DNA of 64,000 nucleotides from Methanomicrobia archaeon JdFR-19 (GCA_002010075.1 MTMG01000013.1:72796-136795); one strand, 5' to 3'; positions 2,981-56,854 are shown, numbered from the stretch's first letter. Translations and numbers: made by a program. Notes: a model not told the origin generated them from the letters alone.

Positions 2981-4079
2981 AGCAGATGAGGGAGAATGGG
3001 AAGAAGTAAAACCCATAGTCGTAAAGGCACTTGAGTCTGGTGTTGATTGCATCCTCACAACAGCCGAACATTCTCCGAAGATAAAGGAACTTGGTGCTAT
3101 CAAAACAGCTGTTCATTACCCCGGAGAGGGGGATGTGGTGGTTGTCGGAAAAGGCACATCGTTTGACGGAACAAAGCCAATCGAAGAAAAGGAAGAGGTT
3201 ATAAAGCTGATAAATTCGTTGAAGAAAAAGGAATACGAGGTCGGAGCTTTTGTTGTGATACGGGGAAAGGAGTACGAGATGCTGGCTTCAGAGCTTGGAG
3301 GAATCTGTGATTATGTGATAGTGGTCAGCACAGACTGGAAGATTATACCGCTTGAGAACCTCATAGCAGCACTCCAACCCACCCCCACAAAACTGATAGC
3401 CAGTGTGTCGAGTGCAGAGGAGGCAAAACTCGCTTTTGAGACACTCGAAGTTGGTACGGATGGAGTTTTGCTATCCACAAAAGACCCGAATGTAGTTGTG
3501 GATACGATGAAGGTTGTGGAGAGCTTGAGAGAGGAAAGGGTTGAACTTGTCCCAGCCCGCATCATCAACTTAGAATAGGTTGGGATGGGAGACAGAGTGT
3601 GTATCGATACGTGTGCAATCATGCAAGTTGGAGAGGGAATGCTTATAGGCTCTCAGGCAAACGGTTTCTTTTTGGTTCATTCCGAAAGCGAGGATTCGCC
3701 CTATGTAGCAGCCCGCCCGTTCAGGGTGAATGCAGGTGCAGTTCATGCCTACATAAAGGTAGGGGATAAGACGAAGTATCTTGCAGAACTCAAGAGCGGA
3801 GACGAGGTGATGGTTGTCAGCAAGGATGGAAGGGCAAGGAGAGAGATTGTGGGCAGAGTGAAGATTGAGAGGAGACCTCTCATTCTTGTGGAGGCAGAGG
3901 TTGGCGGGAGAATCATAAAAACCATTCTTCAGAATGCTGAGACAATAAAGCTAGTGTCCAAAGATGGAAATCCGGTCTCGATAGCCAGTCTCAAGGAGGG
4001 TGACGAAGTTCTTGTTCATGTTGAGGAAGTGGGAAGACATTTTGGTATGGAGGTTAAAGAGACTATCATAGAAAGGTGA
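2964..4079 (+). CDS. aroB': 3-dehydroquinate synthase II (archaeal AroB-prime), with an in-frame TAG at 3576..3578
   Basis: Track ORFs 2907..3578 and 3585..4079 are in the same frame and separated only by TAG GTT GGG. The first half ([14 protein letters not shown]...VDCIL) and the second half ([35 protein letters not shown]) are both DHQ synthase II signature regions. The likely start is ATG 2964, with AGGAGG 12 nt upstream. Final stop is TGA. Confidence 0.85.
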
Positions 4080-4909
4080 AGAGCATGATTTTCCCAGAAG
4101 ACCCCAAGTATGTGGGAGTGTGTGACAAAAATGAGAACAGAAGTGGAATGGTGTATAATCTGACCAAGTATCTAGTGGATTTGGCTACCAATACGATATA
4201 CGAGGTGAGCACCGAGGGTTCGGGCATCATGAGAAATATTGTAGGTCTCAAAGTCATAGCGGTAGCTGATGAGATATTCGAGTACGAACAGCCTGTTGAC
4301 ATCCATAACCGTTCGGAGTTGATAGAGTTATCGAGTATGCTGTGTGGAGGGGATATAACAACTGTCCTCTTCAGAGGATTCGATGAACACATAACGTTTG
4401 TACATAAACCAGACCCTTCTGTTCTCACTGAGATAGAGATATGGGATGTTGTTCCACCTTATCCATCCATACTCGTGCATATGATTGGAAAGCTGAAAGA
4501 AGCCGGCGCCTTCAACGAGTTTCTTGTGAGATTTTTACCAAGACTCGTGAACATAGGTGAGATAGAGGGAAAGAACCTCGTGTTCCCCTGTTCGTGCAGT
4601 GGATTACCATCTCCCCATCTTGACAGAGACTCCATCAAAGGTGAGGTGAAAATCATAGGCTGTGAGATATCGAAGGAGGTTGTGGAGGCGATGTACCCAG
4701 ATGTGAAGCACGACCTCGTGAGCATATGCCCGCACAACAGCGATTACATATCCCCGACCAGACCCTTCATAGCAAGGTGCTGTCGAAAGGAAAGGTGTGG
4801 CCCAACCGAGGTAAATGGCGTTCCAGGTTATATTGTGCATTGGGGAGCAAGACAGAACGAGCTGATTCAGGCTGTGCATACACTTTGTAAGGGGACGACA
4901 GATGTTTGA
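4076..4909 (+). CDS. Hypothetical protein, Cys-rich C-terminus
   Basis: 277 aa with no recognisable family. C-terminal CSCSG...C..H...CC..C cluster. Translationally coupled to neighbours by ATGA/TGA overlaps. Confidence 0.5.
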
Positions 4910-6383
4910 AATAAAAATCAAGGATTTTCTTGGGAGAATTGGAGTTCTTGATACACCACACGGAAAAATAGAAACACCCGCACTTTTACCCGTGATAAAT
5001 CCCAACAGACTTTTACTGCCTGTGGACAAGATGAAGGAGATAGGTGCAGAAGCCCTGATCACGAATGCGTACATAATCTACAGAACTCCGCATCTACGGG
5101 AGAGAGCAGTGGATGTTGGCATCCACCGATTACTCGGTTTTGACGCTCCAGTCATGACGGATTCAGGGTCATACCAGCTTTCAGTGTACGGAGATATTGA
5201 GGTCGAGAATGAGGACATAGTGCAGTTTCAGATTGAAATCGGCAGTGATATAATCGTTCCAAAGGACATTCCAACCCCCCCGTTCTCACCCAGAGAGAGG
5301 ACAGAGAAAGAGCTTATGACAACTGTCAGGAATGTGGGCGAGGCGTGGGAAATGCTGGCAGAGCTACCCAATCGCCCTTTACTTGCCTCACCAATCCAAG
5401 GCTCAACGTACCCCGATTTACGTGAGAAATGTGCAAGAATGTTGAGGGGAATGGGAGACATCTTTCCCATAGGCGCTGTCGTTCCTTTGCTCGAGAATTA
5501 CAGATTTAAACAGCTTGCCGAAATAATATTACATTCCAAGATGGGAACCTCCTCATGTACCCCCCTCCATTTGTTTGGTGCAGGGCATCCAATGATCCTC
5601 TCGTTTGCAGTCGCTTTTGGGTGTGATTTGTTTGATTCGGCCGCCTATGCTCTTTTTGCCAAAGAGAACCGTTATCTGTCTCCCCATGGAACTTATGACC
5701 TTTCCAGTATGGAATACCTTCCATGTGCATGTCCGATATGTTCAACCCATACCGCAAAGGAGTTGAGGGAGTCTGATGAGAGGGAGAGACTTCTTGCAGA
5801 GCATAACCTCCACACAGCTTTCAGCGAGATAAGGTTGATAAAGGAGAGTATAAGGGAAGGAACTCTCATCGAACTCGTTCAACAGAGGTGCAGAGCCCAC
5901 CCCAGACTTCTTGACGCCCTGAAAATAGCACTTTCGCACACAGACATAATAGACGAGCTATCTCCTCAGAGAAGGTCATCCCCGTTTTACTCCGGTCCAG
6001 AATCTGCCCTGATGCCAGAGGTGAGGAGACATCAAAAGAGACTTGAGAGACTCGAGGTTGGAAAGAACTGCATAATCTTCACAACTCATCCAAGCTCAAC
6101 ACACCCAGACCTATCGTTGAAAGATTTTGATTCAGTTTTTATTCTCAAAGCTCCGTTTGGCCCATTTCCACCCGAATTAGCTGAAACACTTCCCGTGAAT
6201 ACGGTTCATGTTAGCGGTGATTTGGAAGCAAAGCATAAAGCTTTGGAGGGCGTAGTATATCTGATAAAGAACAATCCAACCACTTCATTCACACTCGTGC
6301 TTGAGAGGGAGTGGCTCGATATTGCTAAACAGAGACTGAATGGGTTGGATAATGTGGAAGTATGGGGGGAGGAGAATGGTTGA
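4902..6383 (+). CDS. tgtA: Archaeosine tRNA-guanine transglycosylase (tRNA-guanine(15) transglycosylase)
   Basis: 493 aa with TGT-family motifs (DSGSYQL, LFGAGHP, CxCxxC zinc site CACPICS). Confidence 0.85.
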   Translation: MFEIKIKDFLGRIGVLDTPHGKIETPALLPVINPNRLLLPVDKMKEIGAEALITNAYIIYRTPHLRERAVDVGIHRLLGFDAPVMTDSGSYQLSVYGDIEVENEDIVQFQIEIGSDIIVPKDIPTPPFSPRERTEKELMTTVRNVGEAWEMLAELPNRPLLASPIQGSTYPDLREKCARMLRGMGDIFPIGAVVPLLENYRFKQLAEIILHSKMGTSSCTPLHLFGAGHPMILSFAVAFGCDLFDSAAYALFAKENRYLSPHGTYDLSSMEYLPCACPICSTHTAKELRESDERERLLAEHNLHTAFSEIRLIKESIREGTLIELVQQRCRAHPRLLDALKIALSHTDIIDELSPQRRSSPFYSGPESALMPEVRRHQKRLERLEVGKNCIIFTTHPSSTHPDLSLKDFDSVFILKAPFGPFPPELAETLPVNTVHVSGDLEAKHKALEGVVYLIKNNPTTSFTLVLEREWLDIAKQRLNGLDNVEVWGEENG

Positions 6384-14524: not shown

Positions 14525-15913
14525 ATGAGGACAATAGGAGAGACAAGGGAGAGCATAGAGAGTGAAGGGTGTGTTGAGGTTGTTCATCGGGTTCTGGATG
14601 ATATAGAAAGGTCTCCCCTGAACGATTTCATAACGGTTGCGAGAGAGCAAGCTCTTTCGAGTGCAGAGTAGATTGAGAGAAACTGGGGGGAGTGGTGCGA
14701 TAAACCACTTGCAGGCATTCCAATTGCCATAAAGGATAACATATCCACCCGAGGTATAGAAACCACATGTGCCTCCCGCATTCTGAGGGGTTATGTGCCA
14801 CCATTTGATGCAACAGTTGTGGAAAGACTGAAGAACGCAGGAGCAATCATAGTCGGAAAGACAAACATGGACGAGTTCGGCATGGGAACAACATGTGAAT
14901 ACAGCTTCATAGGTCCTACCAAAAATCCACATGATTTGACAAGGGTTGCTGGAGGTTCATCTGGCGGGAGTGCTGCCACTGTTGCATCTGGTGAGCTTCC
15001 CATATCACTGGGGAGCGATACAGGAGGGTCGATAAGATGTCCCGCATCTTTCTGCGGTTGCATTGGATTAAAACCTACATATGGTGCGGTATCGAGGTAT
15101 GGACTCGTTGCTTATGCAAATTCACTTGAGCAGATTGGACCACTATCCAATACGATTTCAGACCTCGCCCTTGTTTTTGATGTGATAGCTGGATGGGACA
15201 GAAGAGATTCCACCACCGTGAACGTCCAGATGAACATAAAAGAGAGGATTGAGAATGTTATGGAGAGGCGCAAAATTACGCTGGGCATTCCGAAGGAACT
15301 CTCCATACCAGATGACAGAATTCAAAAGACTCTGTGGAGTGTGATACATTCCTTTGAGGAGAGCGGGGTTGATTATAGGGAGGTGAGTCTGCCCCACATA
15401 GATTACTCTCTCCCTTCGTATTATATCATAGCAATGAGCGAGGCGTCGTCGAATCTTGCAAGGTTTGATGGGATGAGATACGGTCTCAGAACCGAGGATA
15501 CTGTGTGGTATGAAACATTTTCCAGTGTGCGGGGAATGGGATTTGGAGAGGAAGTGAAGAGGAGGATTGTGTTGGGGACGTTTGCTCTTTCGAAGGGTTA
15601 TCAGGACAGATACTATCTCAAGGCTCTTAAAGTAAGGACAGTTGTGAAGATGGAATTTGAACGGGTGTTGAATGAGGTTGATGCCATCATAACCCCCACA
15701 ATGCCGTGTCAGGCTTTCAAAATAGGTGAGATAAAAGACCCGCTGACGATGTACCTTGCGGATGTCTTCACGGTTCCTGTGAATCTGGCTGGTCTCCCAT
15801 CGTTATCACTGCCTGCCCCCGTACGTGGTCTTCCAATCGGTGTTCAGTTAATAGGAAGACCATTTTCAGAGGGGGAACTCATGGGAATAGCGATGAGAGG
15901 GGGGTGGCAGTGA
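14525..15913 (+). CDS. gatA: Asp/Glu-tRNA amidotransferase subunit A (amidase), with an in-frame TAG at 14669..14671
   Basis: ATG 14525 opens the GatA N-terminus (...LNDFITVAREQALSSAE), then TAG. The same frame continues ...KPLAGIPIAIKDNISTRGIETTCASRIL... (amidase signature) into track ORF 14795..15913 (GGSSGGSAA). Stop is TGA. Confidence 0.9.
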
Positions 15914-35077: not shown

Positions 35078-35081
35078 TAGC

Positions 35082-35435
35082 TCACCCCGTATTCACCGTA
35101 TACTCTCCCCACTTCTCCCGGCTCTGGTATTCAGCGACAGCTCTTGCGAGTGTCTCACCATCAAGGTTGATTGTGATGGGCTGCGGCTCGATTTTTATTG
35201 TTATGTTGTTGGACTCACCGTTTACGTTGGTTGGTTTTACCGAGGATTTTACTGGGAGGAATGTGATGGCAGGATAATCAGAAGTATCTGTGATTTTTAA
35301 GCCCGATAAAATCGGTTTTATTCTGTCCACTGTTTTCAGGATTTCCACGCTCTGATTTATACTGTGGTTTGTTGTGTGTTCTATGTTGTGTGCCATGATG
35401 TACCACACCTTCCTGATTTTATCTATGTTGATCAC
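35082..35435 (-). CDS. Hypothetical protein (virus-like region)
   Basis: 117 aa. GTG start that overlaps the upstream stop. Confidence 0.4.
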   Translation of the reverse strand: MINIDKIRKVWYIMAHNIEHTTNHSINQSVEILKTVDRIKPILSGLKITDTSDYPAITFLPVKSSVKPTNVNGESNNITIKIEPQPITINLDGETLARAVAEYQSREKWGEYTVNTG

Positions 35436-37024: not shown

Positions 37025-37135
37025 TTCTCATCCTCTCCCTATTCATGATTTCGAGTATTCGTGTGATTCTCACGAAGTCCTCCTCAGCCATCTCGTCTAT
37101 TTCAGAAGGAGTCCATCCGAACTCACGCATGAGCA

Positions 37136-37576
37136 TCACTTCCGTGATTTCTTCTGATGGTTCTTTTCCTCGCAGAGCCCGTTTGATGTGCCTGACCCAT
37201 TCCTTTTCGTGGTATCGATATAACGAGACAAAAAATCCTCACAAGTCCCTCCAAGTGCACGCCTGCTGTTGTTGTAGTGGTACCAGAACTCTTCTTCATT
37301 CAGATTCTCGATTTCCTCTGGACTCATCCCGGTAGAGAGCATGATCGTGCCAGCATACATGAGTTCCTCCACCTCATCAGAAAAGTCGGCAAGTGCATCC
37401 CTGTCCTCTTCTACCTTCTCCTTTATTTTTTCTGGAAGTTCATCTGGGTTGATATTTCCGAAGTACTTCAGAATAATTCTTTTGTATAGTTTCCTGAGAA
37501 CTTTTACATCCTTATGAATGGGATTTCTTCTGTAATCCATACTCATACACCTCATGAGATATTTATCGATTTGCAA
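37136..37576 (-). CDS. Hypothetical protein (virus-like region)
   Basis: 146 aa, acidic helical N-terminal part and basic C-terminal tail. Confidence 0.35.
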   Translation of the reverse strand: MQIDKYLMRCMSMDYRRNPIHKDVKVLRKLYKRIILKYFGNINPDELPEKIKEKVEEDRDALADFSDEVEELMYAGTIMLSTGMSPEEIENLNEEEFWYHYNNSRRALGGTCEDFLSRYIDTTKRNGSGTSNGLCEEKNHQKKSRK

Positions 37577-38436
37577 GGCAGACTTTCCAATGTGGTCTCC
37601 ACCAAGTCATCTGGTGTGAAGTCCCCATCGAAATACGGGAAGGCAACTTCTTCCACACCTATCGTTTTATCACCAACGCTGGCAACCAGATCCCTCTTTG
37701 TGAGGCTCGTTATATCACTCAACATGTCCAGACTTGCGAAGTCCATTGTCAACCCCACCACTATATCCCGCTTGGTGGGAACGAGTCCGACTATTTTGGT
37801 GGATGTTGTTGCATCCACATCCTTCACGATTTTGAGTTCGTAGTCCACCCTGATGGAGAATTCTCTGACGTAGTCGCTGATTGCCTCACCCCCCAGCGTC
37901 AGAGACGTCAGGTCATCCCACTTCAGCACCGAGGTGTATGGGGAAGCGTGGCTTCCAGCCCCTATGTAATCCGTGTCCGAATATCCAGAGAAGTCTGCCC
38001 CCACCAGTGTGAAATCAAGGGATGCGACATCGTCTTCTCTGAATGTCAGAGTTGCACTCTTCACCACACAGCCTGCATACTTGCCGAAGTGTTTTGTGCC
38101 CCCGACATCCACGATATGTCCTATCGAGATCGATGGGAGGGAGTCGTCCGTACCAGATGCACTGCCCAGCACATGAGAAGCCCACCATGTCAGGTCGTTG
38201 GGCTTTATGCTCATCGCCAGCTCTATCTCCTGCCCTGTTTTCTCGACTGTCAGACTTTCGAGTGCCTCCTCACCATTCGCCCTCAGATATCTTACGTCCT
38301 GTGAAAGCGTTCGAATCGTGGGAGTAAACCGTTCGACAAGACCGAACCACTGCATCGTTGGGTCAGTTGGGAAGACGCCAAACGATGTCTCATCCACGTA
38401 TTCAACAGGCTGGTTTCCGATTATCATCTCATGCAC
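37552..38436 (-). CDS. Structural protein, major capsid or major tail candidate
   Basis: 294 aa. It sits directly after a coiled-coil scaffold-like gene, following the portal-scaffold-capsid order. Confidence 0.4.
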   Translation of the reverse strand: MHEMIIGNQPVEYVDETSFGVFPTDPTMQWFGLVERFTPTIRTLSQDVRYLRANGEEALESLTVEKTGQEIELAMSIKPNDLTWWASHVLGSASGTDDSLPSISIGHIVDVGGTKHFGKYAGCVVKSATLTFREDDVASLDFTLVGADFSGYSDTDYIGAGSHASPYTSVLKWDDLTSLTLGGEAISDYVREFSIRVDYELKIVKDVDATTSTKIVGLVPTKRDIVVGLTMDFASLDMLSDITSLTKRDLVASVGDKTIGVEEVAFPYFDGDFTPDDLVETTLESLPCKSINIS

Positions 38437-38731
38437 CTCCGTACTGGGTTATGAGTTCGTCAATTCTTTCGAGTTCTGACTGGATATTCTCGATTCTCTG
38501 CTGGATTACTGATGTTAGTTGAGACTTCGTCTCGTCCGATAACCTTGAATTGAGAATAAGGCTCTTTTCAGATTTCAGGTCGTCCAGATGATTCTGGAGA
38601 GTTTCCTTCTTCGTGTTCAGATACTCCAAAACATCCTTGGTACTCATCACCGTTTTGAGAAGGGACTCGAGCGATTGGGCATAATTTTTGAGATAATCTA
38701 ACTCAATTTTTATCATGTCAAGCTCCTCCAC
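38429..38731 (-). CDS. Coiled-coil protein (scaffold-like)
   Basis: 100 aa with heptad-rich sequence (LESLLKTV...LQNHLDDLKSEK...IENIQSELERIDELI). Confidence 0.4.
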   Translation of the reverse strand: MEELDMIKIELDYLKNYAQSLESLLKTVMSTKDVLEYLNTKKETLQNHLDDLKSEKSLILNSRLSDETKSQLTSVIQQRIENIQSELERIDELITQYGGA

Positions 38732-39127
38732 TCAAACACCTCCTTCAATAAAATGAACTTTGAATTCCACAATCCTGCAATTCGGACTTTTCTCCCTGTT
38801 TGATGTGTTGGCTATGGTGTAGCCAAGTTCTGCACTCAGAAGAAGTTGCACAACAGAATCCGCCAGTTCATCCCTCTGTTTCACAGTGTTTGACCAGACC
38901 TTCACCTTTACATGGGCAACGAACTCACTGAGAACAAGTCCATCCTCGAGGTCTCTGTAGTGTTTGGTGTTCACAATTTCCCCTTCAACCGTTATCATGG
39001 GATACATCGGTTCATGGGAATGGTATGCTGTGAAGATCCACGAGTCTCCAGCCACATTCGGGTCATTGGGATTCGTAAGATTCTCTCTCAGGTAATCCCT
39101 TACCGTGAGTACAACATCCTCCAACAT
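38732..39127 (-). CDS. Hypothetical protein (virus-like region)
   Basis: 131 aa. Its TGA stop abuts the GTG start of the scaffold-like gene. Confidence 0.4.
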   Translation of the reverse strand: MLEDVVLTVRDYLRENLTNPNDPNVAGDSWIFTAYHSHEPMYPMITVEGEIVNTKHYRDLEDGLVLSEFVAHVKVKVWSNTVKQRDELADSVVQLLLSAELGYTIANTSNREKSPNCRIVEFKVHFIEGGV

Positions 39128-39214
39128 CCTGAATGAGGTTGGAGGAGGGATAGAAAATGCTAAATCAGAAAAGTTGAGGGGAATAAAAAGAGAGGATATT
39201 GTGTTAGACTCGCA

Positions 39215-39493
39215 TCATCTTATCTCAAACCTTTTCCTATCAAGCAGTTCCTGTTTCTTTGCCTCGTTCCAGCCACTCACATCTTGGAGATATCCCGTTA
39301 TCCGAGAAATGGGCAGGACGTTGTGCGAACCACATTCCGGACAGTAGAACTCACCACATACCGGACAGACATGTATCCCAGAAATGGGTTTCATGCACGA
39401 ACCATGCTCGCGGGCATACTCCCTGACGGGGCAGTTGTCAGGCGTGTATTTAAACTCACTCTTGATAGCCTTCTCAATGACTTCTTGAAGCAT
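39215..39493 (-). CDS. Stand-alone NrdD-like C-terminal domain: zinc ribbon plus glycyl-radical motif
   Basis: CPVCGEFYCPECGSH ... SRITGYLQDVSGWNEAKKQELLDRKRF parallels the class III RNR C-terminus (CxxC...CxxC, RV(C/T)GY(L/S), WN.GK..E..DR) in only 92 aa. Confidence 0.6.
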   Translation of the reverse strand: MLQEVIEKAIKSEFKYTPDNCPVREYAREHGSCMKPISGIHVCPVCGEFYCPECGSHNVLPISRITGYLQDVSGWNEAKKQELLDRKRFEIR

Positions 39494-39534
39494 GAAAGTG
39501 AATTGACTCCAATTCTACTTAAATGTTAGGATGT

Positions 39535-40614
39535 TTAAATATTAAGAGGGTCGAATCTCATTTCCACCCCCTCATCGTATCCCCATGCTCTCATCTGTGG
39601 GATGAGGACATCTCTCTCGAACACTCTTTTGATTTGGCGTTGCATCGACATCAGAACGTTCAGTCTGTCTTTCTCTGAAACGTAGGAAGATGCGTAGGTT
39701 GAGCCTCTTGCCTTTCCGGTTGTAATCTCTGACTGGAGGAGAGCTATTGCGATGTCTCTTTCCAAGCTCTCCTTGAGTCCGAGAATGTCGGTTGCTCCTG
39801 TGGTTGGAGTCAAAGGCTTCACCTCGAATCCCACCCCCACAATGTCCTCGTTCTGTTCAAGCTTCTGCATCTCCTCTTTCACATCGTCCAGCACTTTCTT
39901 TATCTCCTCGAATCTTCCTTCGTGCAGAAGTGGTTCAAGAGCCTTCATATCGATGTGAAGCCTTCCCATTCCGTATCTTCTGACAGCTTTTGTGAATCCT
40001 TCGAGCAAATCGAGTTTGTACTTCACGATTCTGTCTATGGGGTCGAGGAGTGAGATACCATACAGACCAAGGGTAGTTCTTCCCATGATATCTGTGCATA
40101 CATTCCCCTCTGGAAAGAGGCGAAATAGTGCGAACTCGTCTCTGTTGAATACTGTGGGGACAGACTCCTCCTGAACAACCACTCTGTCCACCTTACCCTT
40201 CAGAACGTGTGTGGGAATCTCTTTCGGTCTCACTCCTTTGGGGAGGAGAGTGATGTACCTCATGGGGAGTGGAGTGAGTGAGGAAATAGTATCACCATCC
40301 CATTCGAGGTGGAGAACAACGGTTCCATCACGGGCAAGCAGTCTGGCAACTGTTGCAATCACGTGGTCGAGATTCACTCCCACAGCCCACTTTTCAAGCT
40401 CCTTCACACCACCACAGAACTCGAAGCCACTTGAGATTGTGAGACCCAGTTTCAGAAGTGAGGTTGCAACATAGGGGTCGATCTGGGAGAGCTGTTCGTA
40501 TCTGATGAAGCGGTTGGATGTGTCAAGGTAGAAGTTCCCCACTTTGTAGTCGTCCGGTGTGATTCTGGGTATTGCCGACAAAGAAGCCTGAATTCTTTTC
40601 TTTCTGAAGAACAT
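39535..40614 (-). CDS. Portal-like protein candidate (virus-like region)
   Basis: 359 aa. The evidence is weak: its size and its position at the head of a scaffold/capsid-like array. Confidence 0.35.
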   Translation of the reverse strand: MFFRKKRIQASLSAIPRITPDDYKVGNFYLDTSNRFIRYEQLSQIDPYVATSLLKLGLTISSGFEFCGGVKELEKWAVGVNLDHVIATVARLLARDGTVVLHLEWDGDTISSLTPLPMRYITLLPKGVRPKEIPTHVLKGKVDRVVVQEESVPTVFNRDEFALFRLFPEGNVCTDIMGRTTLGLYGISLLDPIDRIVKYKLDLLEGFTKAVRRYGMGRLHIDMKALEPLLHEGRFEEIKKVLDDVKEEMQKLEQNEDIVGVGFEVKPLTPTTGATDILGLKESLERDIAIALLQSEITTGKARGSTYASSYVSEKDRLNVLMSMQRQIKRVFERDVLIPQMRAWGYDEGVEMRFDPLNI

Positions 40615-40652
40615 GATTGGTTCTCGGAGGGCTGGTAGATTTGGCTAAATTT

Positions 40653-41816
40653 TTATTTATATTTTCTCAGAACATCCTTCAACTCCCTCAGAAACTCTTC
40701 CACCGTTCTTTCAGAAACGTGGGGCATCATGACCATTCTTATTGCCTCACCCACAGTCGAGACATACCAGTTCCTTCTCATCAGCTCATTCTTCACATCC
40801 TCCGCCCTATCACATCTCACACACAGCACATTGCACACCGGCTCTATGACCGGCTCGAGTCCGAGCTCCTCACATCCCTCTTTCATGAGATGGGTTATAC
40901 GCATGCACTCCTTCACGATTTTCGTGTAACCATCCCATCCGAGATGTCTCATCACCGCATACGCACCCACAACAGAACCACCAGTTCTCGTTCCGGTGAG
41001 TGTGTATTGAGAGCGGTGGGTGAGGTAGGGGGTATCGACCGCCAGCCTATCCATCACGTTCTCTCTGAAAACAAGCACACCGCACGGAATGGTTGAGAAT
41101 CCCATCTTGTGTGGGTCTATCGAAACTGAACTGACACCCTTCACAAAACCCCAGTCTCTCCTTCCAAGAAATGGAAGGACAAATCCACCAAACGCAGCAT
41201 CCACATGCAGAAATATTCCTCTCTCCTCTGCAATCTTCCCCAACTCCTCGATTGGGTCAACCTGTCCGTACTCTGTTGTACATGCGATGCCAACTATTGC
41301 AAACGTGTTATCATCCACCAGACCCTCCACCTCTCCAACATCCACCTTCAAATCCTCATTGAGCGGAGCCTTCCTGACCTCAACACCCAAAAGGTCTGAA
41401 ATTTTATCAAAAGAGAAATGGGCACTCTCAGGAACCACAATATTTCCTTTTTCACCTTCGCTTCCTTTTTTATTTTCTTTCTTTGCAACCCTCATCGCCT
41501 GTATGTTGGATTCTGTTCCTCCAGTGGTTGCAAATCCCCATGTCTTCGAGTTGCCAGCAAGCTCCCCAACCCTCTTCACAACACACCCTTCTATCTATGA
41601 GGAAGCGGGAAACAGCCCCGGGTCTCCAAGGTTCGATTCCATGTAGAGGATGTGGGCTCTCACAGCAACCGGATGGGGTAAGGTGCACATCGAAGAAAGA
41701 ATTCTGGTGTAGGAGATGTCCCTCTCCTTCATCAGCGAAAGCACATACAACACGCTCTCATCTTTTTCGCCCTCTATGTTCCACACCTTCACACCTCCAA
41801 AAGCTCTGCTTCGCAC
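40653..41816 (-). CDS. mfnA: PLP-dependent L-tyrosine/L-aspartate decarboxylase (MfnA family), with an in-frame TAG at 41595..41597
   Basis: Track ORFs 41595..41816 (N-terminus ...SSMCTLPHP...NLGDPGLFPASS) and 40653..41579 (...TTGGTESNIQAM...SIDPHKMG with the PLP lysine) share a frame and are joined through TAG ATA GAA GGG TGT GTT GTG. Both halves align to MfnA. The N-terminal start is uncertain and overlaps the upstream gene. Confidence 0.8.
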
Positions 41817-42424
41817 CTCTCAAAATCAACAACAGCACCCATCCCCATGTAAAGGGGACCCGGATTGACAATCAGAGTTCCCGTGCGATGTTCCACTCCT
41901 CTTGCCTCGTGTATGTGTCCGCACAGAATCACATCCACCTTCCCCACCGCCCCCTATATCGCCTTCGAGCCAACGTGCTCTCCCCTCGCCACATCACACA
42001 CTCCATAGGGTGGTGCATGACTCACGAGACACGTTGTACGGCTCTCATCCCGAATCTTAGAGAGCAGTTCTTCCAGCATGTATCTGATTGAGTCCTCACT
42101 CATCTCGAACGGAGTCGAAAATGGAGTGGGATTCGAGCCACCGATTCCCATGAACAGCACGTCCCCCATCTCGACCACCCTCCTGTGCAGGGGGATTGCT
42201 CCCTCCTCCTCAAGTGCTTGGTGAATTTCTGGCGGGTCACAGTTCCCACCAACTCCAATCACTTTCCTGCCCTTCAGAATCTCCATCATGTGCTTCACAT
42301 GTGTGAGGGGACCGAAGTTCGTGATGTCTCCGCACATCACAACCACATCCACCCCCACCCTTTCAACCACTTCTCTCATTTTCTCGTATCTTCCATGTGC
42401 ATCAGACAAGACGAGTGCTCTCAT
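41789..42424 (-). CDS. Metallophosphoesterase (MJ0936/YfcE-like), with an in-frame TAG at 41954..41956
   Basis: Track ORF 41954..42424 (MRALVLSDAHGRYEKM...VVMCGDITNFG...GGNCD) stops at TAG. The same frame continues GAVGKVDVILCGHIHEARGVEHRTGTLIVNPGPLY... (the GHxH and NPGS motifs) to a TGA at about 41789. Confidence 0.75.
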
Positions 42425-43891: not shown

Positions 43892-44998
43892 ATGGAATTA
43901 TTGAGGACGATTGAAAACATCCCAATTATTAAGAATAACTACATTCTTTTACCGTTTGTGTTTCTGATGATTGTTCTGTCTGTTTTATATCCCCAAAACA
44001 TAAGAGATTACCATACTTTTGTGGATTGGAGAACACTCGCAGTTTTAACCGGTCTATTAGTCATTACAACCGCAATAAAAGAGAGTTTCTTCTTTCTCAA
44101 AATGATTAAAAAATTTTTCAAAAGAATAGATAACGAAAGAAAGTTAGCATTGACTCTGATTATACTTGCATCATTTTTATCCATGTTCTTAACAAACGAT
44201 ATTGCATTATTCATAGTACTCCCACTGACTCTGGCTTTTCAGATGTATCTGCAAAACAGCTTACAGAAGTTAATAGTCTTCGAGACCATATCGGTCAATG
44301 TCGGCTCAGCTCTTACTCCCATCGGTAACCCCCAAAATCTGTTTTTATGGCACCAATGGAACATCTCCTTTTTCAGTTTTGTGATGAACATGATGCCACT
44401 ATTTGTGATACTGTTCTTCACCCTCCTGATGTTCGGTTTGGTTGTGTTTCCCTCCAGAAAATTGTATTTCAGGATGCCAGAGAATGTGGTGGATTCAAAC
44501 GACAGATTATTCTACCTCTCGACCGTTCTTTTGTTGTTGTTTATTTTAGCTGTCGAATTTGCTTTTTCATACTATGCACTGCCAATTATCCTTTTGATTT
44601 ATGCAATATTTTTCAGAAATGTGTTGAGGAAGGTCAACTGGCTATTGATTGTGTTGGTTGGCATTATGTTCATAGACTTTCATATCATAAGTCAAATGCA
44701 CATCGTGTCTGATTTCATTAATCAATTTGACCTACACAACTCTGCAACAATCTTTGCACTGTCTCTGTTCTCATCCCAGATAATTAGTAATGTTCCTGCG
44801 AGTATCTTCATGTCAAAATTCACAGACAACTGGCTTGCGATAGCTTATGGTGTAAATGTGGGCGGAAATGGACTTTTTATTGGCTCTCTCGCGAATATAA
44901 TAGCTTTGAAATTCATCAACAACTGGTTAGAGTTCCACAAATATTCATTAGCTTACTTCATCCTTACAGGAAGTCTTGTGTATGTCGTCTTCAGATGA
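43892..44998 (+). CDS. ArsB/NhaD-superfamily anion permease
   Basis: 368 aa with the IGNPQNL signature. The gene is visibly AT-rich and has different codon usage from its neighbours. Confidence 0.7.
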   Translation: MELLRTIENIPIIKNNYILLPFVFLMIVLSVLYPQNIRDYHTFVDWRTLAVLTGLLVITTAIKESFFFLKMIKKFFKRIDNERKLALTLIILASFLSMFLTNDIALFIVLPLTLAFQMYLQNSLQKLIVFETISVNVGSALTPIGNPQNLFLWHQWNISFFSFVMNMMPLFVILFFTLLMFGLVVFPSRKLYFRMPENVVDSNDRLFYLSTVLLLLFILAVEFAFSYYALPIILLIYAIFFRNVLRKVNWLLIVLVGIMFIDFHIISQMHIVSDFINQFDLHNSATIFALSLFSSQIISNVPASIFMSKFTDNWLAIAYGVNVGGNGLFIGSLANIIALKFINNWLEFHKYSLAYFILTGSLVYVVFR

Positions 44999-48968: not shown

Positions 48969-49519
48969 ATGATGAGGCTAAAAAACAGAGCAGAGATGCT
49001 TAACAGATTGGCATCAGACCCGAAGAACAAGCCGGACGAAATCATAAGAAGGATGGGCTTGAAGGAGGGGCAGGTAATAGCAGATGTAGGCGCCGGAGGT
49101 GGTTATTTCTCAGTGAGATTTTCAGAGGTGGTGGGAGAGAAAGGCAGGGTTTATGCGGTCGATACGAATCCCAAGTTCTTGGAGCACATACAGATGATGG
49201 CAGGGAAGAACAACATCACCAATCTCATCACCGTCCTCGCAACCGAGGACAGATTCAGTCTGCCAGAAAAAGTGGATTTTGTGTTCATGCGCAATGTTAC
49301 ACACCACATCAAAAACAGAGTGGAGTATTTCAAGAGGTTGAGAGAGGTTCTGAAACCAAATGGAAGAGTTGTCATAATAGATTACGAGAAATCGTTATTC
49401 CGCAGAATTTTCGGGCATTATGTGCCTAAGAACACCATAATAATGGAGATGAGATAGGCGGGATACAGGTTGAATGAGGAGTTCGACATTCTACCAAAAC
49501 AGCACTTCACCGTCTACAC
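48969..49519 (+). CDS. Class I SAM-dependent methyltransferase, with an in-frame TAG at 49455..49457
   Basis: Motif I VIADVGAGGGYFS. After the TAG the frame continues AGYRLNEEFDILPKQHFTVYT to a TGA, which is the usual (e)aGF...v.....hf C-terminal strand of these methyltransferases. Confidence 0.75.
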
Positions 49520-49863
49520 TTGACATAGTTCTCTTTCTTACCGCACCTCAAACACTCTCTTTCCACATCCACCACATTAGAAGACGCGTATATGGTGTAT
49601 CTCTCCTTCCATTTGTGCAGTCCAAATTTGCATAGAATGCCCAACATCATGATAAACCATTATGATTAATGATATAAAAAAGAATTGGGGGTATCCCGAA
49701 GGACACCCAATCGTTTCACGCTTTCTTGATGAAGTTCTTGGCAAAGGTTCTCGCCTGATAGAGTGCAATCAAGCTCAGCACCCAAATCAGGATGAAAGCC
49801 ACGTAGTCAATGCCCGCAGCTCTCCACACACCTTCCAATCCAAAGCCCCACATTCATATCACC

Positions 49864-50187
49864 TCACAACATGCACACCTGCTGTGCGCGTTCTCTTCCG
49901 AAGTCCTCTATCTGGTACTTGTAGAGAACTGCGCCCTCTCCGAAGTAAGTCCCGTCATCCACTTTCTGCTCGACACTCGATGTGAGACCACCTGATGCGA
50001 GCTCTATCAGGAGCAGTTTAACCTGTGATTTCCAGTAGTCTCCACTGATTCCGTACTCTTTGCTTATGGTTTCCCAGAGCTCGTAGTCCCACATAGCACC
50101 TTTCTCATCGAGTAATTGAAGTACTCTGCATTTAATCGGCATTTCAGTTGGGTTTTTTGTTCTGGCAGCCATTTCACACCACCTCAC
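49864..50187 (-). CDS. Small winged-helix-like protein (PadR-like?)
   Basis: 107 aa. Weak resemblance to PadR-type wHTH. Confidence 0.35.
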   Translation of the reverse strand: MRWCEMAARTKNPTEMPIKCRVLQLLDEKGAMWDYELWETISKEYGISGDYWKSQVKLLLIELASGGLTSSVEQKVDDGTYFGEGAVLYKYQIEDFGRERAQQVCML

Positions 50188-51260
50188 ATCTCCCTCGTTG
50201 TTTCCTCAACGACAGCACCTTCCCAGTAGTACATTATGAACGTACCAATCACTGCGACTATGACACCCAAGATGAGCCACCAGGCTGGGACGCCACCGAG
50301 GAAGAGTATCACGAATATCACTGCGAGCGGTCCATAAAGGGCTGCGATTGCCTGTCCTCTGCCCACACCGATCAGTGGGAAGGACTTGTACCATGAAACA
50401 TAACAGAATGCGAATGTTATACCAGCTGCCACAAGCCAGACTTGGGCATCTGCATTAGCGGTCGCTGACAAGAGTGGATAGATATTCCATCCGAACAGTG
50501 CAGCTGTGAGTGGGCATATTATGATGATCCAGTAGAAGACCTCGCCCATGAAACGCACTGTTATCCCAATGTCTGGGTCTGAAACATCCAGCGCCCTAGC
50601 AGCGACTGCTCCCTCGATACCCCATCCGAGGAATGCCATTGCACCTCCGAGGTATCCGAGGAACAGCACTTCAGGAGCCGCCGGATTCTGCAGTTGCGCA
50701 ATCATGTCCAGCGGGTTGAATATCAGTATGCCACCGAGAATAATAAGGACTATACCGAGGTATGTTCTCGGAGAAATCCTCTCCTTATACCACAGTTTAG
50801 CAATAGTTGCACCAACAACAGGATACACAAGAGCTGCTGCTGCAGCAAAGGCACCACCGATAATACCCATTGCCATAAACGAACCAAATATAGCTATTGG
50901 ACCACCGCATATTGCTCCAAGCCAGAACCACTTCGAGATGTTTGTGAAGTTTCGCAGTGTCCTTATCAACTCACCAAACTTACCGAGCACACCAACCCAT
51001 ACCAGAAGGAAAATCAGAACCCACACAGCGTTGAACGTCGTTATTACGACAGCTGCAGCCAAGAACTCGCCCAGCGGGTCGGTTCCCGGAAAGAGTGGTG
51101 GAGCCCATTCTCCATATGGGGGGGCATACCATACGACTGTCCCTGGGATGTACCACAATCCCCAGAGAATTGCACACCATAATGCCCAAATAAAACCCCA
51201 TTTAACTTTTACTTTTTGTTCGGCTTTTATTGCTTCAGCCAAACTCGTTACAGCACCCAT
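50184..51260 (-). CDS. Polytopic membrane protein (DMT/EamA-like transporter candidate)
   Basis: 358 aa, about 10 TM helices, Trp/Gly-rich. Confidence 0.55.
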   Translation of the reverse strand: MGAVTSLAEAIKAEQKVKVKWGFIWALWCAILWGLWYIPGTVVWYAPPYGEWAPPLFPGTDPLGEFLAAAVVITTFNAVWVLIFLLVWVGVLGKFGELIRTLRNFTNISKWFWLGAICGGPIAIFGSFMAMGIIGGAFAAAAALVYPVVGATIAKLWYKERISPRTYLGIVLIILGGILIFNPLDMIAQLQNPAAPEVLFLGYLGGAMAFLGWGIEGAVAARALDVSDPDIGITVRFMGEVFYWIIIICPLTAALFGWNIYPLLSATANADAQVWLVAAGITFAFCYVSWYKSFPLIGVGRGQAIAALYGPLAVIFVILFLGGVPAWWLILGVIVAVIGTFIMYYWEGAVVEETTREM

Positions 51261-51312
51261 ATCATCACCTCATTACAAATTTTTGGGGAGAAAAAATGAA
51301 AAAAACTCCCCT

Positions 51313-51957
51313 TTACTCTGCACCTACAAGTTTCTTAGCAATTCTTACGGCGTCGAGAGCATTCTCGGCGTAAGCATCAGCACCAATCTTGTCAGCCCAT
51401 TCTTGGGTTATGGGAGCGCCTCCCACCATCACCTTGACCTTGTCCTTGATGCCAACCTTCTCAAGCTCCTCTACGACTGCACGCTGGTTGAGCATTGTTG
51501 TTGTCATGAGTGCGGATGCCCCTACGATGTCTGCGTTCAGTTCCTTTGCCTTGTTGGCGAACTCCACATTGGGGACATCCCTTCCGAGGTCATGAACATC
51601 GAACCCCGCAATGCTGAGCATGGTTGCGACGATGTCCTTACCGATCGTGTGAATGTCTCCCTCAACTGTTCCAATCAAGTACACTCCTATGGATTCTCCT
51701 GCCTTTGCTCCCTTCAGAACTGGCTCAACCACAGCAACAGCAGCCTTCATGGCTTCAGATGCTGCCATCACGTGAGGTAGGAAAACCTCGCCCTTGTCGA
51801 ACTTATCACCAATCTCACGCATAGCAGCGGTCATGCCCTCAATGAGTTCCACAGGGTCAACACCCGCATCGAGTGCTTCCTGTGCCGCCTTTACAGCCTC
51901 GTCTTTCTTGTAGTTTTTGATTGCATCCTGAACTTTCTGTATAAGCTCGCTTGACAT
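51313..51957 (-). CDS. mttC: Methylamine-specific corrinoid protein (B12-binding, MttC family)
   Basis: 214 aa with the cobalamin-binding DxHxxG motif (GDIHTIGKDIV) and the corrinoid-protein N-terminal helical cap. Confidence 0.85.
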   Translation of the reverse strand: MSSELIQKVQDAIKNYKKDEAVKAAQEALDAGVDPVELIEGMTAAMREIGDKFDKGEVFLPHVMAASEAMKAAVAVVEPVLKGAKAGESIGVYLIGTVEGDIHTIGKDIVATMLSIAGFDVHDLGRDVPNVEFANKAKELNADIVGASALMTTTMLNQRAVVEELEKVGIKDKVKVMVGGAPITQEWADKIGADAYAENALDAVRIAKKLVGAE

Positions 51958-51963
51958 TAAAAA

Positions 51964-53478
51964 TCACCTCCCTTCTAATGCCGCCTTATCGGCCCTCTTC
52001 ATAACCTCTTCCATGTCCTTCAGCACATCGCTGTCTATCGGAGCGACCTCATGCGTCTTGAGAATCTCATCGACCTTATCGCGTGCTGCCTGTGCAAGGT
52101 CCTTTCCGCCAAGGGACTGCCATGTCCCTCTCATGTTCCTGTCGATCAAGGTTGGGTTGGACTGAATGTTGATGAGGTCTCTTGTCTCATCCAGAGCCAA
52201 GAAGTCTCCGCCCGCTCCAACTGACTTGATGGAGTCTACAGCGAGTGTTGTCTCGTTCACTTCGATTCCCTCAACGACCATCCTTGCCATTCCAATGATA
52301 TCGTTGTCGATGACTATCTGCTCAGAGCTGACAGTCATACCAAGCTCGAGCATACCTGCTCCGTATATGCTGTTCGCACCTGCAAGTGCGGGTACGAGTG
52401 TTGTGATTGTCTTCTCATGACCTGCCTGTGCATCTGGGAGTTTGGAGTCGGTCTAAGTTCCAGCCACGTAGCTTGGCAAGTTGTAATACTGAGCCAGCTG
52501 TGCCACTGCTGCACTGATAAGTGCAAGCTCAGGCGAACCAACTGGTGCGGTTCCCTTTCTCAGGTCGAAAGCTGTTGTGGAGCTTCCATACCACACAGGA
52601 GCACCAGGGTTTGCAAGCTGGGACAGGACTATACCTGCCAAAACCTCAGCGTTGTGTGTCACGAGAGTGCCTGCAACATGCACCGGAGATGTCGCTCCTG
52701 CCATTGCCATGCTCAAAACGTTCACTGGCATCTCGTACTTTGCACCATATATTATGACCTTCACAGCGTTCTCGTGGAGTTGTAGTGGGCTTGTTGGACA
52801 GAGAAGCAACGAGAGTATTGGTCTCTTCCTTGCCAGCTCCTCATCTCCACCATAGAACGCCTTTACTACTTCCCAGTATGTGTCGATGCTGGTACCGACA
52901 GGGTCAATGTGCTGGAAGTGTTTGCTCGTACCCTTCAAGGATGCCATCAGTTCGTGTACGTCCTGCGCACCCTTGTCAGACCAGTCTCTTGCAGAGACCG
53001 TCAGGGAGAAGTAGTCAATGTTATCACACCAGTCTGTGACTATTGCGGTGTCGATGATGTCCTGCTCAACTGAGTCCCTGACAACCGGCTTGCCATCTTT
53101 GAATTCGAATACCTGTACACCGGTACCGAAGGTTGTCCAGTATACTTTGCCTCCTGCCTCCTGAATGAGGTCGTTCTCCTTGGTTCTGCCTGCCAGTAAG
53201 AATCTTGATGGGGCAGTCTGCAAAGCCTTCCTCACGACCCACTCAGGAATCTTCACCATCTGTGTCTCGTTGTCTACTTCACAGCCGTTTTCCTCGAACA
53301 CTTTTCTACCGAGTTCATCTGTGACGAGAACGCCTGTGTCTGTGAATACGTCCATGGTAGCTTGGTGTATCTCTCTTAATTCGCTCTTAGAGAAGAGTTT
53401 TAACCCAGCTCCATGAAGCTTCTCAACGCCTGCTTCTACATATTTTCTCATGTTTATCACGTAGGAAGTGTATGCCAT
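51964..53478 (-). CDS. mttB: Trimethylamine:corrinoid methyltransferase MttB, with in-frame TAG (pyrrolysine position) at 52453..52455
   Basis: Track ORFs 52453..53478 and 51964..52353 are in frame. The joined protein reads ...[55 protein letters not shown]... and is collinear with Methanosarcina MttB across about 500 aa. The TAG sits at the canonical Pyl site. Confidence 0.9.
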
Positions 53479-53630
53479 TACATCTAAATAAGTCTTACTA
53501 AAAAACCGAATAAATCAAAATAAATTGAATAAATTATAAAAAAATTTGAGTTTTGAACTGAAAATAGGACGCAGTCTTGTCACTTCATTTTCCACCATAC
53601 ATATATATTTCACAATGATAAATCAAAATC
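53479..53630. promoter_or_regulatory. AT-rich divergent promoter region upstream of mttBC (minus) and a membrane-protein gene (plus)
   Basis: About 150 nt of A/T tracts between divergent starts (aaataaattgaataaattataaaaaaattt). Confidence 0.3.
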
Positions 53631-54140
53631 ATGGATAGACGGATAAAAGTTGTCCTGCCCATAGCTCTCGCAGTCATTTTCGTGGTAATTCAGTCCCGCG
53701 AAATATATCCACTCATGGTAGTTTATTTCTTCCCACCGCTCGGGAAGGAGTCTGTCATCCCCACTGCGGTAGCCCTTGGATTCGGGCCACTTCACACCGC
53801 TCTCACCTTCACCACCATGGACGCCCTCACCTCCCTCTTCATCATATGGAACTTCGACCTTGTGTGCAGACTCAAGGTGATTGGAGACATCATAGCACGG
53901 GTGATGGTGAAGGCTATTAACATCCTCTCCCGCCGTCCATGGATATGGAGGTTTGCCTACATTGGAATATTCGTAGTTGTTTTTATCCCGTTTCAGGGAA
54001 GCGGTGCTGTGACCGCATCCGTACTGGGAAAACTGCTCGGTCTAAAACCCGAATACCTGTGGGTTGTCATAGTTCTAGCATCTTTTTTGAGCTCGATAAC
54101 GATTGCATTCTCCACAAGAATCGCCATACACCTTCTTTAA
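53631..54140 (+). CDS. Small polytopic membrane protein, unknown function
   Basis: 169 aa with about 4-5 TM helices. Confidence 0.5.
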   Translation: MDRRIKVVLPIALAVIFVVIQSREIYPLMVVYFFPPLGKESVIPTAVALGFGPLHTALTFTTMDALTSLFIIWNFDLVCRLKVIGDIIARVMVKAINILSRRPWIWRFAYIGIFVVVFIPFQGSGAVTASVLGKLLGLKPEYLWVVIVLASFLSSITIAFSTRIAIHLL

Positions 54141-56401
54141 GGAGGTGTTTCCAGCCACGGTTTGTAATCCACATTCCCGACAGCCCTTGATGCCCGTGGA
54201 GATGGACCCTTCGGCGAGCCCCACCAGTTGTATTCCGCATTCACTTTCTGTGGTGTTATTCCCCACACTCCAACGCTCGTGTTTCCGAAGTCGTTGTAGT
54301 GGAGTTCACACCCATGCCTCTTGAATATGAGGGCTCCTGAGAATCCTTCGTAGCGGTTATGGACCACGTATGCGAACGGAGTACCAACATCCCCGATTAC
54401 GACTGTCCCGAACTTTGTGGACTGGATGAAGTTGTTGGATATTTCGGTCTGTGCGTTCCTCCATACGGTTATTCCGAGTTTTGTGTCCAGAGAGTTGTTT
54501 TGTATGTGGCAATTCGTGAGTCTCTCTTCTGTGAGACCCGCAATCACAATCCCACTGTTCGCAGATATTTCATTGTCCCTTATTGAGTTGTTGAAGGCTC
54601 TCGATTCTGGGACAGACTGCACCACCACACCCATCTTTGCATCCACCCTGTTTCCAACCACATTGTTCTCGACTCCTGTCACCACCACACCTATATCACC
54701 CGATATCGTGTTCCCCACAACGATATTGTGGTCTGGGAGGTTGTAGAAACCGGGAGGCTCAACAGCACCACTCTTGTTTGTGAAGTATGGGCGTGTTATT
54801 CCGAGTTCGTACATGAGTACAAGCTGTTCTTTCAAGTCCTTTTTCAGTCCCTTAACCTTGATCTTCTTCATCTTCAAGTTCAGCAACTTCACATTTGACC
54901 AGAAGGTTGTGTTCGTGACAACCACACCGAACTTTGCAGATATGGAGTTATTCTGGATGATGGAAGAGGTTGTGTTGTATGCTACGATGCCATACAGACC
55001 TTGGAGGGTGTTGTTTGTGATGCGGGTCGAATCCGAAAAGGCGAGCAAGAGCCCCTCACTACCGGTGTTGTTCTCAAATAGTCCATGGTCATCGAAGCTC
55101 ACCTGATAGGAATATATTCTGCACGAGCTGGCTATGTTGTCCCTCACGACTATGCCACTGCTAACTCTTGTCCATATAGTGAAATTGTTCTCGTATCCGG
55201 TGTTGTTCTCGATGAAGACGTTGTTTAGGTAGGCACCATATATGCCAGAGTGTGTGTCGTTGAACACAGTGTTGTGTCTTACGAACGAATTCGAGACAGT
55301 GTCCATGTGTATCCCGTACGGGCATGAGTGGATGGTGTTGTGGGTGAGGGTCAGGTTGGTGGAATGGACTTCCGCAATTATTCCGTGTTTTTCACACGAT
55401 TGTATGGTGGTGTTCGAGACGGTGGAGTCGTTTACCGTGTAGAGCAGTACACCATACTTCCCTCCATCTATTGTTGAGTCCAAGAGGCTGAGGTATGATG
55501 AGTCTCTTGCGTATACAGGGATTGTTGTTGAGGATGAGGTGAGATTGAATACACGGGAGTGTGAAGAATACTGGACACACACACCGAACTCGCAATCAGT
55601 GGTCGAGATGTTTGAAATCTGCGAGTTCTCGGACAGATACACATAAACACCCTAAGAGCAGTTGGTTGCAGAGATGGATTCAGCTCTCACACCATCCGAA
55701 TCCAGCAGATAAAGTCCTATGTTCAGACCCTCGAACGAGATGTTCGAAAGAGTGGATGAAGAGTTGCGCAGTATCACACCACTCTGCTCTCCTGTGAGGA
55801 GTGCATCCTCGATTTCCCCATTCACGTTGTACAGATAGATGGGAGATGTTTTTCCATATACGGTGGTGTTGTGCATCGAGAAAAAGCCGTTATCCGTGGC
55901 GAACACATCACTTTGAAGTAAGCAGTCCTTTACCCACACCCGAGAGGATATGGGTCTGATCGAGTATCTGGAGGTGGATATTGTGGTGTTGGATACATTC
56001 ACCTCAGAGTTCATTATGACCATGCCATCGGTGGAGTTGATGATGTTGCACCCTTCTATGCTCACGTTGGTGCGTAACGGGTCTGAGTAGTATCCAACGA
56101 GTATTGCGGTTCCGTCTGTATCAACGGTGAGGTTGGCAAGTGTGATGTTCGATGCTTTTATCCAGATGTAGTCTTCAAGTGTGCAACCGAGTGTGCCACC
56201 TATGATGGAGACTTCCTTTCCAATGTTGAGGGTTTCGTTGTATGTTCCGTTCACAACTATCGTGTCCCCATCACTCGCATTTGTGAGCGCCTGAGATAGG
56301 GTGGGATAGTCCTCAGGAACATGGATTACACTTGCATTTGCTCCCGCGGTTGTTATGAATATGAACAACACGATTAGAGGCAATTTCATACTCAATTTCA
56401 T
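54137..56401 (-). CDS. Secreted right-handed parallel beta-helix repeat protein (NosD/pectate-lyase-like), with an in-frame TAG at 55652..55654
   Basis: Track ORFs 55652..56401 (signal peptide MKLSMKLPLIVLFIFITTAGANA plus beta-helix repeats) and 54137..55642 share a frame. They are joined via TAG GGT GTT TAT GTG TAT. The NxS/T-rich repeats continue across the junction. Confidence 0.7.
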
Positions 56402-56437
56402 ACATACACACTCTCCAAACTAATATTTAAATCAAGC

Positions 56438-56854
56438 TCACCATTTCACACTCTCGAGAATCACAGCAGGACAAATCCTATTCACTCCATCCATTCTCGC
56501 TATTTTTTTGTGGATTTCAGACAATTCGTCGAGCGAGAAGGCAACAACCTAACTCATGATTGTGTGGTCTCCTGATGTCAGCATCACAATCTTCACCTCT
56601 TCCATTTCCCTCAGCTTTCTGATCACATCCCAGAGATGTTCAGGACCGACATCTATGCCCGTGAGGGAGGCAAACAGATTTTTGTAGTTCAGCATTGCAT
56701 TGTATCCGAGTATCACACCCTCCTTTTCCAGTTTTGTTATCCTCTTCCTGACCGCAGTCTCACTCAGTCCAAGCATCTTCGCTATCTTCGTCTTGGGGGT
56801 TCTTGCATCTCTCAGCAACATCGAAATGATTTTTCTGTCTCTTTCATCCATCAT
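56438..56854 (-). CDS. lrp: Lrp/AsnC-family transcriptional regulator, with an in-frame TAG at 56549..56551
   Basis: N-terminal HTH (KIISMLLRDARTPKTKIAKMLGLSETAVRKRITKLEKEGVI). After the TAG, the RAM domain continues VVAFSLDELSEIHKKIARMDGVNRICPAVILESVKW to a TGA. The TAG aligns with the conserved Lys of the GDYDLLLKVVA segment. Confidence 0.8.

Follow-up and report, generated by a model that had tools for sequence, protein, structure and literature searches.

To our knowledge, only one alternative genetic code has been described in Archaea, and in it a stop codon has been completely reassigned to a 21st amino acid. Under this code, named Genetic Code 34, every TAG codon specifies pyrrolysine (Pyl), as was demonstrated with proteomic data from two organisms, M. 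burtonii and M. alvi (Kivenson et al., bioRxiv 10.1101/2024.09.30.615893). In that preprint, the metagenome-assembled genome JdFR-19, a member of the Methermicoccaceae, appears as an outlier among Code 34 genomes, with 13% of its genes containing TAG and 191 predicted Pyl proteins carrying at most four Pyl residues each. Here, a stretch of 64,000 nucleotides from Methanomicrobia archaeon JdFR-19 (GCA_002010075.1, MTMG01000013.1:72796-136795; hereafter the window) was analysed for its use of the TAG codon; the organism is an uncultured, methanogen-related archaeon of the deep subseafloor. Nine genes of the window are each interrupted by one in-frame TAG, no gene was found to terminate with it and, judging from these sequence data, UAG is very likely a sense codon everywhere in this organism, with Pyl as the residue most probably inserted, as in Genetic Code 34. 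The phenomenon was already published in 2024, as was very probably this genome, and the value of the present work is that a blind reading of raw sequence recovers the published code.

Compared with Genetic Code 34, the window shows no difference in kind. As in that code, internal TAGs occur in conserved genes other than methyltransferases ('Category 1'; nine of about 70 genes here), TAG terminators are missing, as are read-through overlaps of more than 60 nt with a gene in another frame ('Category 4'), and a methylamine methyltransferase carries Pyl without a pyrrolysine insertion sequence (PYLIS) being needed. The JdFR-19 genome described under this code also has the same proportion of TAG-containing genes and the same origin, a Juan de Fuca crustal fluid metagenome. 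Two elements reported below, the turnover between TAG and CAG and the selection acting on both halves of the interrupted genes, as seen by comparison with a sister species from Guaymas Basin, come from the present analysis and were not found in the accessible portion of the Code 34 preprint.

Other described systems share only part of these features. Methanosarcina-type genomes use the same codon at the same Pyl site of the trimethylamine methyltransferase MttB, presumably with the same machinery, but TAG ends about 5% of their genes and UAG has a dual meaning (PMC12626013), whereas in the window no gene ends with TAG and the codon is found inside housekeeping genes. Hydrothermarchaeota JdFR-18 comes from the same metagenome and habitat and is also Pyl-encoding, with a complete pylT-pylSn-pylSc-pylB-pylC-pylD cluster adjacent to genes for the biosynthesis and transport of cobalamin (L139, 9610-13990; JGI24020J35080_1000057). 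Unlike JdFR-19, this organism (39.3% guanine plus cytosine, GC) is not recoded, 4 of the 25 neighbouring genes being TAG-ended; having Pyl alone therefore does not remove TAG stops. Codes in which TAG was reassigned to glutamine (Gln), or a stop codon in general to a canonical residue, in phages, ciliates and some bacteria resemble the present case in that a stop codon became a sense codon genome-wide without any cis signal, but there the recoded codon aligns with one residue and turns frequent, whereas here the aligned columns are mixed and TAG makes up 0.045% of all codons, one of its sites being a known Pyl site. Finally, the recoding of UGA as selenocysteine likewise gives a stop codon the meaning of a non-standard amino acid, but requires a selenocysteine insertion sequence (SECIS) and a dedicated elongation factor while UGA remains a stop, in contrast to the window, where TAG has neither a shared RNA structure nor any terminator use.

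In the mechanism that would account for this pattern, termination would occur only at UGA and UAA, and UAG would be translated throughout, a Pyl-tRNA with a CUA anticodon, charged by pyrrolysyl-tRNA synthetase (PylRS), delivering Pyl at each UAG. A gene-specific RNA signal would be unnecessary for this decoding, and new TAG codons would arise mainly from CAG by C-to-T transition, at positions tolerating the change.

Stop codon usage and in-frame TAG codons

Genes were called in the window by codon-usage scoring and greedy tiling, with stops limited to TAA and TGA. Among the 70 genes obtained, 55 end with TGA, 14 with TAA and none with TAG, the last one being partial, and a further gene dropped by the caller (22796-23692, minus strand) is likewise TGA-ended. 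The reading from which this work started, made from the sequence only, had reported roughly 68 genes with about 53 TGA, 15 TAA and no TAG stops; the absence of TAG was borne out. On both strands, TAG accounts for 16.6% of the TAG, TAA and TGA trinucleotides, and if stop choice tracked trinucleotide abundance, 0 TAG among 69 stops would be expected with P of about 4e-6. The trinucleotide itself is common in the window, TAG having been counted 318 and 67 times in the two off-frames, versus 9 times in 20,112 in-frame codons. No in-frame TAG was found near the end of any gene of the window besides a methyltransferase gene described below, and hidden cases of a TAG stop followed by a short extension are therefore not present in the window. 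The largest overlap created by read-through, between a phosphoesterase gene and mfnA, is 28 nt, and none exceeds 60 nt out of frame in the 64 kb plus flanks.

Translation confirmed all nine in-frame TAGs previously claimed, with one internal TAG per gene. These genes represent 13% (9/69) of the genes in the window, and eight of the nine fall outside the methylamine methyltransferases, which, with 0 of 69 stops being TAG, agrees with the earlier proposal that TAG usage here goes beyond the methyltransferase-restricted type. When the read-through proteins were compared with Pfam, a single unbroken domain match was found to extend over the TAG in eight cases, making a frameshift or an indel unnecessary, while the ninth gene is backed by the sister species; the claim of family-typical sequence on both sides of each TAG thus stands. 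Each of the nine is split when genes are called with the standard code.

Four of these genes lie on the plus strand. The gene at 2964-4079, referred to as aroB' in the sequence-only reading and more correctly named as the archaeal 3-dehydroquinate synthase II gene, has its TAG at 3576-3578, and its product matches DHQS (PF01959) over residues 2-371 of 371 (E=4e-137). The gatA gene (14525-15913), encoding subunit A of the Glu-tRNA(Gln) amidotransferase, is placed between gatC and gatB and carries TAG at 14669-14671, as codon 49 of 462, with an Amidase match (PF01425) over residues 18-452 (E=2.5e-149). A DUF89/ARMT1-like damage-control phosphatase gene (25221-26090; TAG 25437-25439) matches PF01937 over residues 5-283. 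The fourth, a gene for an S-adenosylmethionine (SAM)-dependent methyltransferase (48969-49523; TAG 49455-49457), is the exception mentioned above: its Pfam methyltransferase domains end upstream of the TAG, which is located 22 codons ahead of the TGA.

On the minus strand, the gene for an MfnA-like pyridoxal phosphate-dependent decarboxylase (40653-41816; TAG 41595-41597) shows a Pyridoxal_deC match over residues 60-313. The metallophosphoesterase gene (41789-42424) has its TAG at 41954-41956, corresponding to residue 157, with a Metallophos-type match spanning the TAG over residues 1-192 (Metallophos_2, 1-192, and Metallophos_3, 86-208, both crossing residue 157). TAG is also found in mttB (51964-53478; TAG 52453-52455), whose product matches MTTB (PF06253) over residues 26-496, in a gene for a secreted beta-helix/NosD-like repeat protein (54137-56401; TAG 55652-55654, residue 250; Beta_helix, 207-357, and NosD, 229-378) and in lrp, encoding a regulator of the Lrp/AsnC family (56438-56854; TAG 56549-56551, residue 102; AsnC_trans_reg, 66-134). 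The remaining in-frame TAGs of extended open reading frames (at 48966 and 56420, and in the frames starting at 11140, 28244 and 62505) all lie 5' of the likely ATG starts.

The TAG of mttB had been placed at the canonical Pyl site, and it does align with X334 (Pyl334) of M. barkeri MttB (PDB 7xcl). The two proteins (7xcl/7xcm) align with E=3e-208, nearly all aligned columns being identical or conservatively replaced. Searches with Rfam identified the mttB pyrrolysine insertion sequence PYLIS_3 (RF02510) at 52356-52455 on the minus strand, with 89.9 bits (gathering score 38; E=3.5e-17). This match begins at the mttB TAG and covers the full model (1-100), with a folding z-score of only -1.32. 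More generally, no shared RNA structure was found by folding the 110 nt from each TAG, the z-scores of the nine sites being 0.86, -2.87, 0.05, 0.05, -1.23, 0.75, -1.32, -0.13 and -0.22. Eight sites thus fall between -1.32 and +0.86 and gatA alone is notable, its segment 14669-14778 (plus strand) having a folding energy of -34.3 kcal/mol, which none of 200 shuffled sequences equalled in stability. The lack of a common downstream structure argues for a context-independent decoding.

TAG codons in independent assemblies and a sister species

Contigs from three independent datasets, Logan SRR3723048 (crustal fluid from the Juan de Fuca Ridge flank), JGI 3300037583 and Logan SRR12613063, matched the window with 100% identity in all regions of overlap and jointly covered all nine TAGs; assembly error is therefore ruled out. 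A 'Methanosarcinales archaeon' from Guaymas Basin, with 88-94% nucleotide identity to the window and synteny extending over about 31 kb, was used as a sister species, the comparison covering the TAG genes other than the DUF89 gene and mttB, the segment of the latter being absent from the sister. TAG is kept in this species in mfnA and in the phosphoesterase, beta-helix protein and lrp genes, and is replaced by CAG, a Gln codon, in aroB', gatA and the SAM methyltransferase gene. The situation is reversed in the gene for SRP54, a core component of translation and secretion located upstream of the window, with TAG in the sister (ELKP-O-TLMLVG, where O is the TAG position; L085, 460-1767) and CAG in this strain (L002, 504-1811). 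Also upstream, about 0.6-1.2 kb from window position 1, the thymidylate kinase gene (L002, 2109-2705) contains three in-frame TAGs, all of which are conserved in the sister.

Across the genes comparable with the sister, the ratio of non-synonymous to synonymous differences (pN/pS) ranges from 0.05 to 0.33 on both sides of the TAG. Upstream and downstream values are 0.14 and 0.06 for aroB', 0.27 and 0.18 for mfnA, 0.13 and 0.27 for the phosphoesterase gene, and 0.33 and 0.13 for the beta-helix protein gene; a value of 0.11 was obtained downstream of the TAG in gatA, and the downstream values as a whole lie at 0.06-0.27. The SAM methyltransferase gene is intact in the sister (185 aa), and the 19 codons following the TAG position are conserved with a pN/pS of 0.14. 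Both halves of these genes are under purifying selection and are therefore translated, which means that the genes are not pseudogenes. Among 46 sister gene calls no TAG terminator was detected, the six calls 'ending' in TAG all being pieces of interrupted genes. The absence of TAG stops and the presence of nine internal TAGs, with purifying selection on both sides, thus support the genome-wide reassignment of UAG, or its constitutive suppression, with Pyl, as suggested by the sequence-only reading. To the published code the two-species comparison adds one small point, namely a probable ongoing gain of Pyl codons from CAG in housekeeping genes, with both halves under selection.

The residue at UAG and competing explanations

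The residues found in homologues at the TAG columns differ from gene to gene. In PDB homologues of GatA the column is occupied by Ser or Glu, in both DUF89 homologues (2ffj and 2g8l) by Glu, in M. jannaschii MfnA (3f9t) by Leu, and in LrpA (1i1g) by Val, with Gln or Lys in other Lrp homologues; a PDB search for homologues of the phosphoesterase found nothing. No single canonical residue fits TAG, because these columns are S/E, E/E, L and V/Q/K. It is nevertheless conceivable that UAG is read as a canonical residue, most plausibly Gln, by a suppressor or near-cognate tRNA, much as in the TAG-to-Gln codes of certain phages and eukaryotes; Pyl would then occur in MttB alone or in no protein. In favour of Gln, all four interspecies TAG differences (aroB', gatA, the SAM methyltransferase gene and SRP54) have CAG as a partner, as this explanation would predict, and Gln is present at the TAG column in one Lrp homologue. 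However, mutation alone explains the CAG partners, as CAG is the only common codon that a single transition converts to TAG. In addition, differences between CAG and TAG occur at 3 of 114 sites where 14 were expected at the rate of synonymous transitions (P=2.5e-4), taking as a reference the exchanges CTG/TTG and CAG/CAA, both at 12.3%. Being about five times rarer than synonymous transitions, the CAG/TAG exchange argues against TAG encoding Gln, as do the codon counts of the window (9 TAG versus 242 CAG), the heterogeneity of the other columns, the location of the mttB TAG at the catalytic Pyl site and the fact that no tRNA bearing a CUA anticodon was found in the 77 kb examined. Taken together, Gln as the general meaning of UAG appears highly improbable, and the TAG/CAG pattern fits CAG-to-TAG mutation followed by selection against most such changes. 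For the eight sites other than mttB, we infer that the residue is Pyl. A variant in which UAG is not purely Pyl, non-methyltransferase sites receiving Gln or a supply-dependent mixture of Pyl and Gln, with the TAG-bearing Lrp able to sense read-through, is considered quite improbable.

A different explanation is that decoding is ambiguous, archaeal release factor 1 (aRF1) still recognising UAG, so that truncated products and Pyl-containing full-length proteins would coexist in proportions that follow the Pyl supply; the code would then be expanded rather than reassigned. Such a dual reading of UAG, both as stop and as Pyl, exists in M. acetivorans, and ambiguity has been argued to be an endpoint (Shalvarjian et al. 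2025, PMC12626013). Moreover, according to the Code 34 preprint, a release factor is found in every archaeal genome that it examined (Kivenson et al., bioRxiv 10.1101/2024.09.30.615893), and partial termination is compatible with the DNA evidence. Yet the stop meaning would be retained without any visible use, TAG terminating none of the roughly 70 genes of the window and none of the 46 called in the sister, and purifying selection is as strong downstream of the TAG as it is upstream. Substantial termination would also be costly in gatA and in SRP54 of the sister, where TAG occurs early in the gene, and ambiguous decoding is therefore regarded as unlikely. As for pseudogenes or sequencing and assembly errors, with the missing TAG stops as a compositional accident, the splitting of all nine genes by standard-code callers is what this explanation would predict, but the sequence is identical in three independent datasets, each gene has a single lesion that is always TAG and never a frameshift or an indel, four TAGs are conserved across species, and TAG is common off-frame. 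The chance of this explanation is negligible, and the pseudogene reading, for which the sequence-only reading had named lesions in the nine genes as the sign to look for, is refuted by the selection analysis, which includes the downstream halves.

Besides the dual reading in M. acetivorans, the compatibility with partial termination and the CAG partners, several observations weigh against Pyl being inserted at every UAG of this genome. Neither pylT nor pylS nor pylBCD was detected in the window or its 13-kb flanks (77 kb in total) by ARAGORN, Rfam and a scan for CUA anticodon arms, the latter having recovered pylT in three control loci. Nor was the pyl operon of this organism recovered by database searches, the candidates looked up among the best 120 of 1,800-3,600 PylSc matches per query all belonging to other organisms. 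Composition is a further point, the window having a GC content of 46.9% and its flanks 43.6-44.7%, for a published JdFR-19 genome at 43.2%; a control locus of JdFR-21 matched its published GC, and the region analysed here may simply be GC-rich. Finally, just past window position 64000, a 321-aa gene ends with AAA AAA TAG TAA, the sole TAG seen at a gene end, with TAA immediately 3'. It lies beside an N6-adenine DNA methyltransferase-like gene (L092, 7327-9719), itself split by TAG (80 aa and 390 aa on either side), in a region with a lower local GC (43.6%) that is possibly a recently acquired island.

The PylSc searches used the M. mazei, A. arabaticum and JdFR-18 proteins as queries, and a search of 50% representatives yielded about 25 PylSc clusters. 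Several candidates for the PylSc of this organism were rejected: P0164 belongs to an unrelated methanogen (41% GC) in which genes do stop with TAG, P0346 and P0366 are bacterial, P0337 is from a TARA metagenome, and P0344 is the protein of Hydrothermarchaeota JdFR-18. One sequence found only in JGI data, P0345, is encoded on a 130-kb contig and is 69% identical to the JdFR-18 protein; it is a candidate for the PylSc of this organism. For JdFR-19 itself, PylSn, PylSc and tRNAPyl were reported (Guo et al. 2022), and TAG suppression by its PylRS/tRNAPyl pair in E. coli was described in the Code 34 preprint (Kivenson et al., bioRxiv 10.1101/2024.09.30.615893). Based on this JdFR-19 literature, the pyl genes would be present and constitutively expressed in this genome.

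Neighbouring features and biological implications

The mttB gene belongs to a 3.77-kb segment (49825-53595) that also comprises mttC, the gene for a membrane protein of 358 aa resembling permeases, and an open reading frame of 107 aa. The mttC gene (51313-51957, minus strand), named after the source annotation as encoding the trimethylamine corrinoid protein, lies directly 3' of mttB, and together with the permease makes up its neighbours. Exactly this segment is missing at the same locus of the sister species in three independent assemblies (L089, L090 and L091; junction 49824|53596), and it may be a cassette that was gained or lost. The closest relatives of MttB elsewhere, on metagenome contigs, are 81% identical and were found on LDZQ/LDZS contigs of oil-reservoir type. 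The two genomes differ at another place of the window, where the gene for an NhaD/ArsB-like permease (43892-44998, in the segment 43871-44994) is absent from the sister at this locus.

A cluster of genes resembling those of tailed viruses extends over about 30585-40614, on both strands. Its products include a major head protein of the HK97 type (phrog_264; Linocin_M18/Phage_capsid_4), a scaffold or minor capsid protein, a tail-tube or minor tail protein and a possible portal. No in-frame TAG was found in this cluster, which uses TGA and TAA stops only, and its comparable part (37832-40654) is conserved in the sister with 87% identity. A possible interpretation is a provirus, or an element that became domesticated, with adaptation to the code of the host.

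The annotation of this organism with the standard code breaks about one gene in eight, including gatA, aroB' and mttB. Among the genes concerned, lrp, with its conserved TAG at codon 102 and its position about 3 kb from the mttB cassette, would be a candidate sensor of read-through, a role for Pyl-containing regulators that was put forward as a speculation by Shalvarjian et al. 2025 (PMC12626013). In a weaker version of the proposal that UAG is not purely Pyl, this clade may be in an active and measurable phase of gaining Pyl codons in its housekeeping genes.

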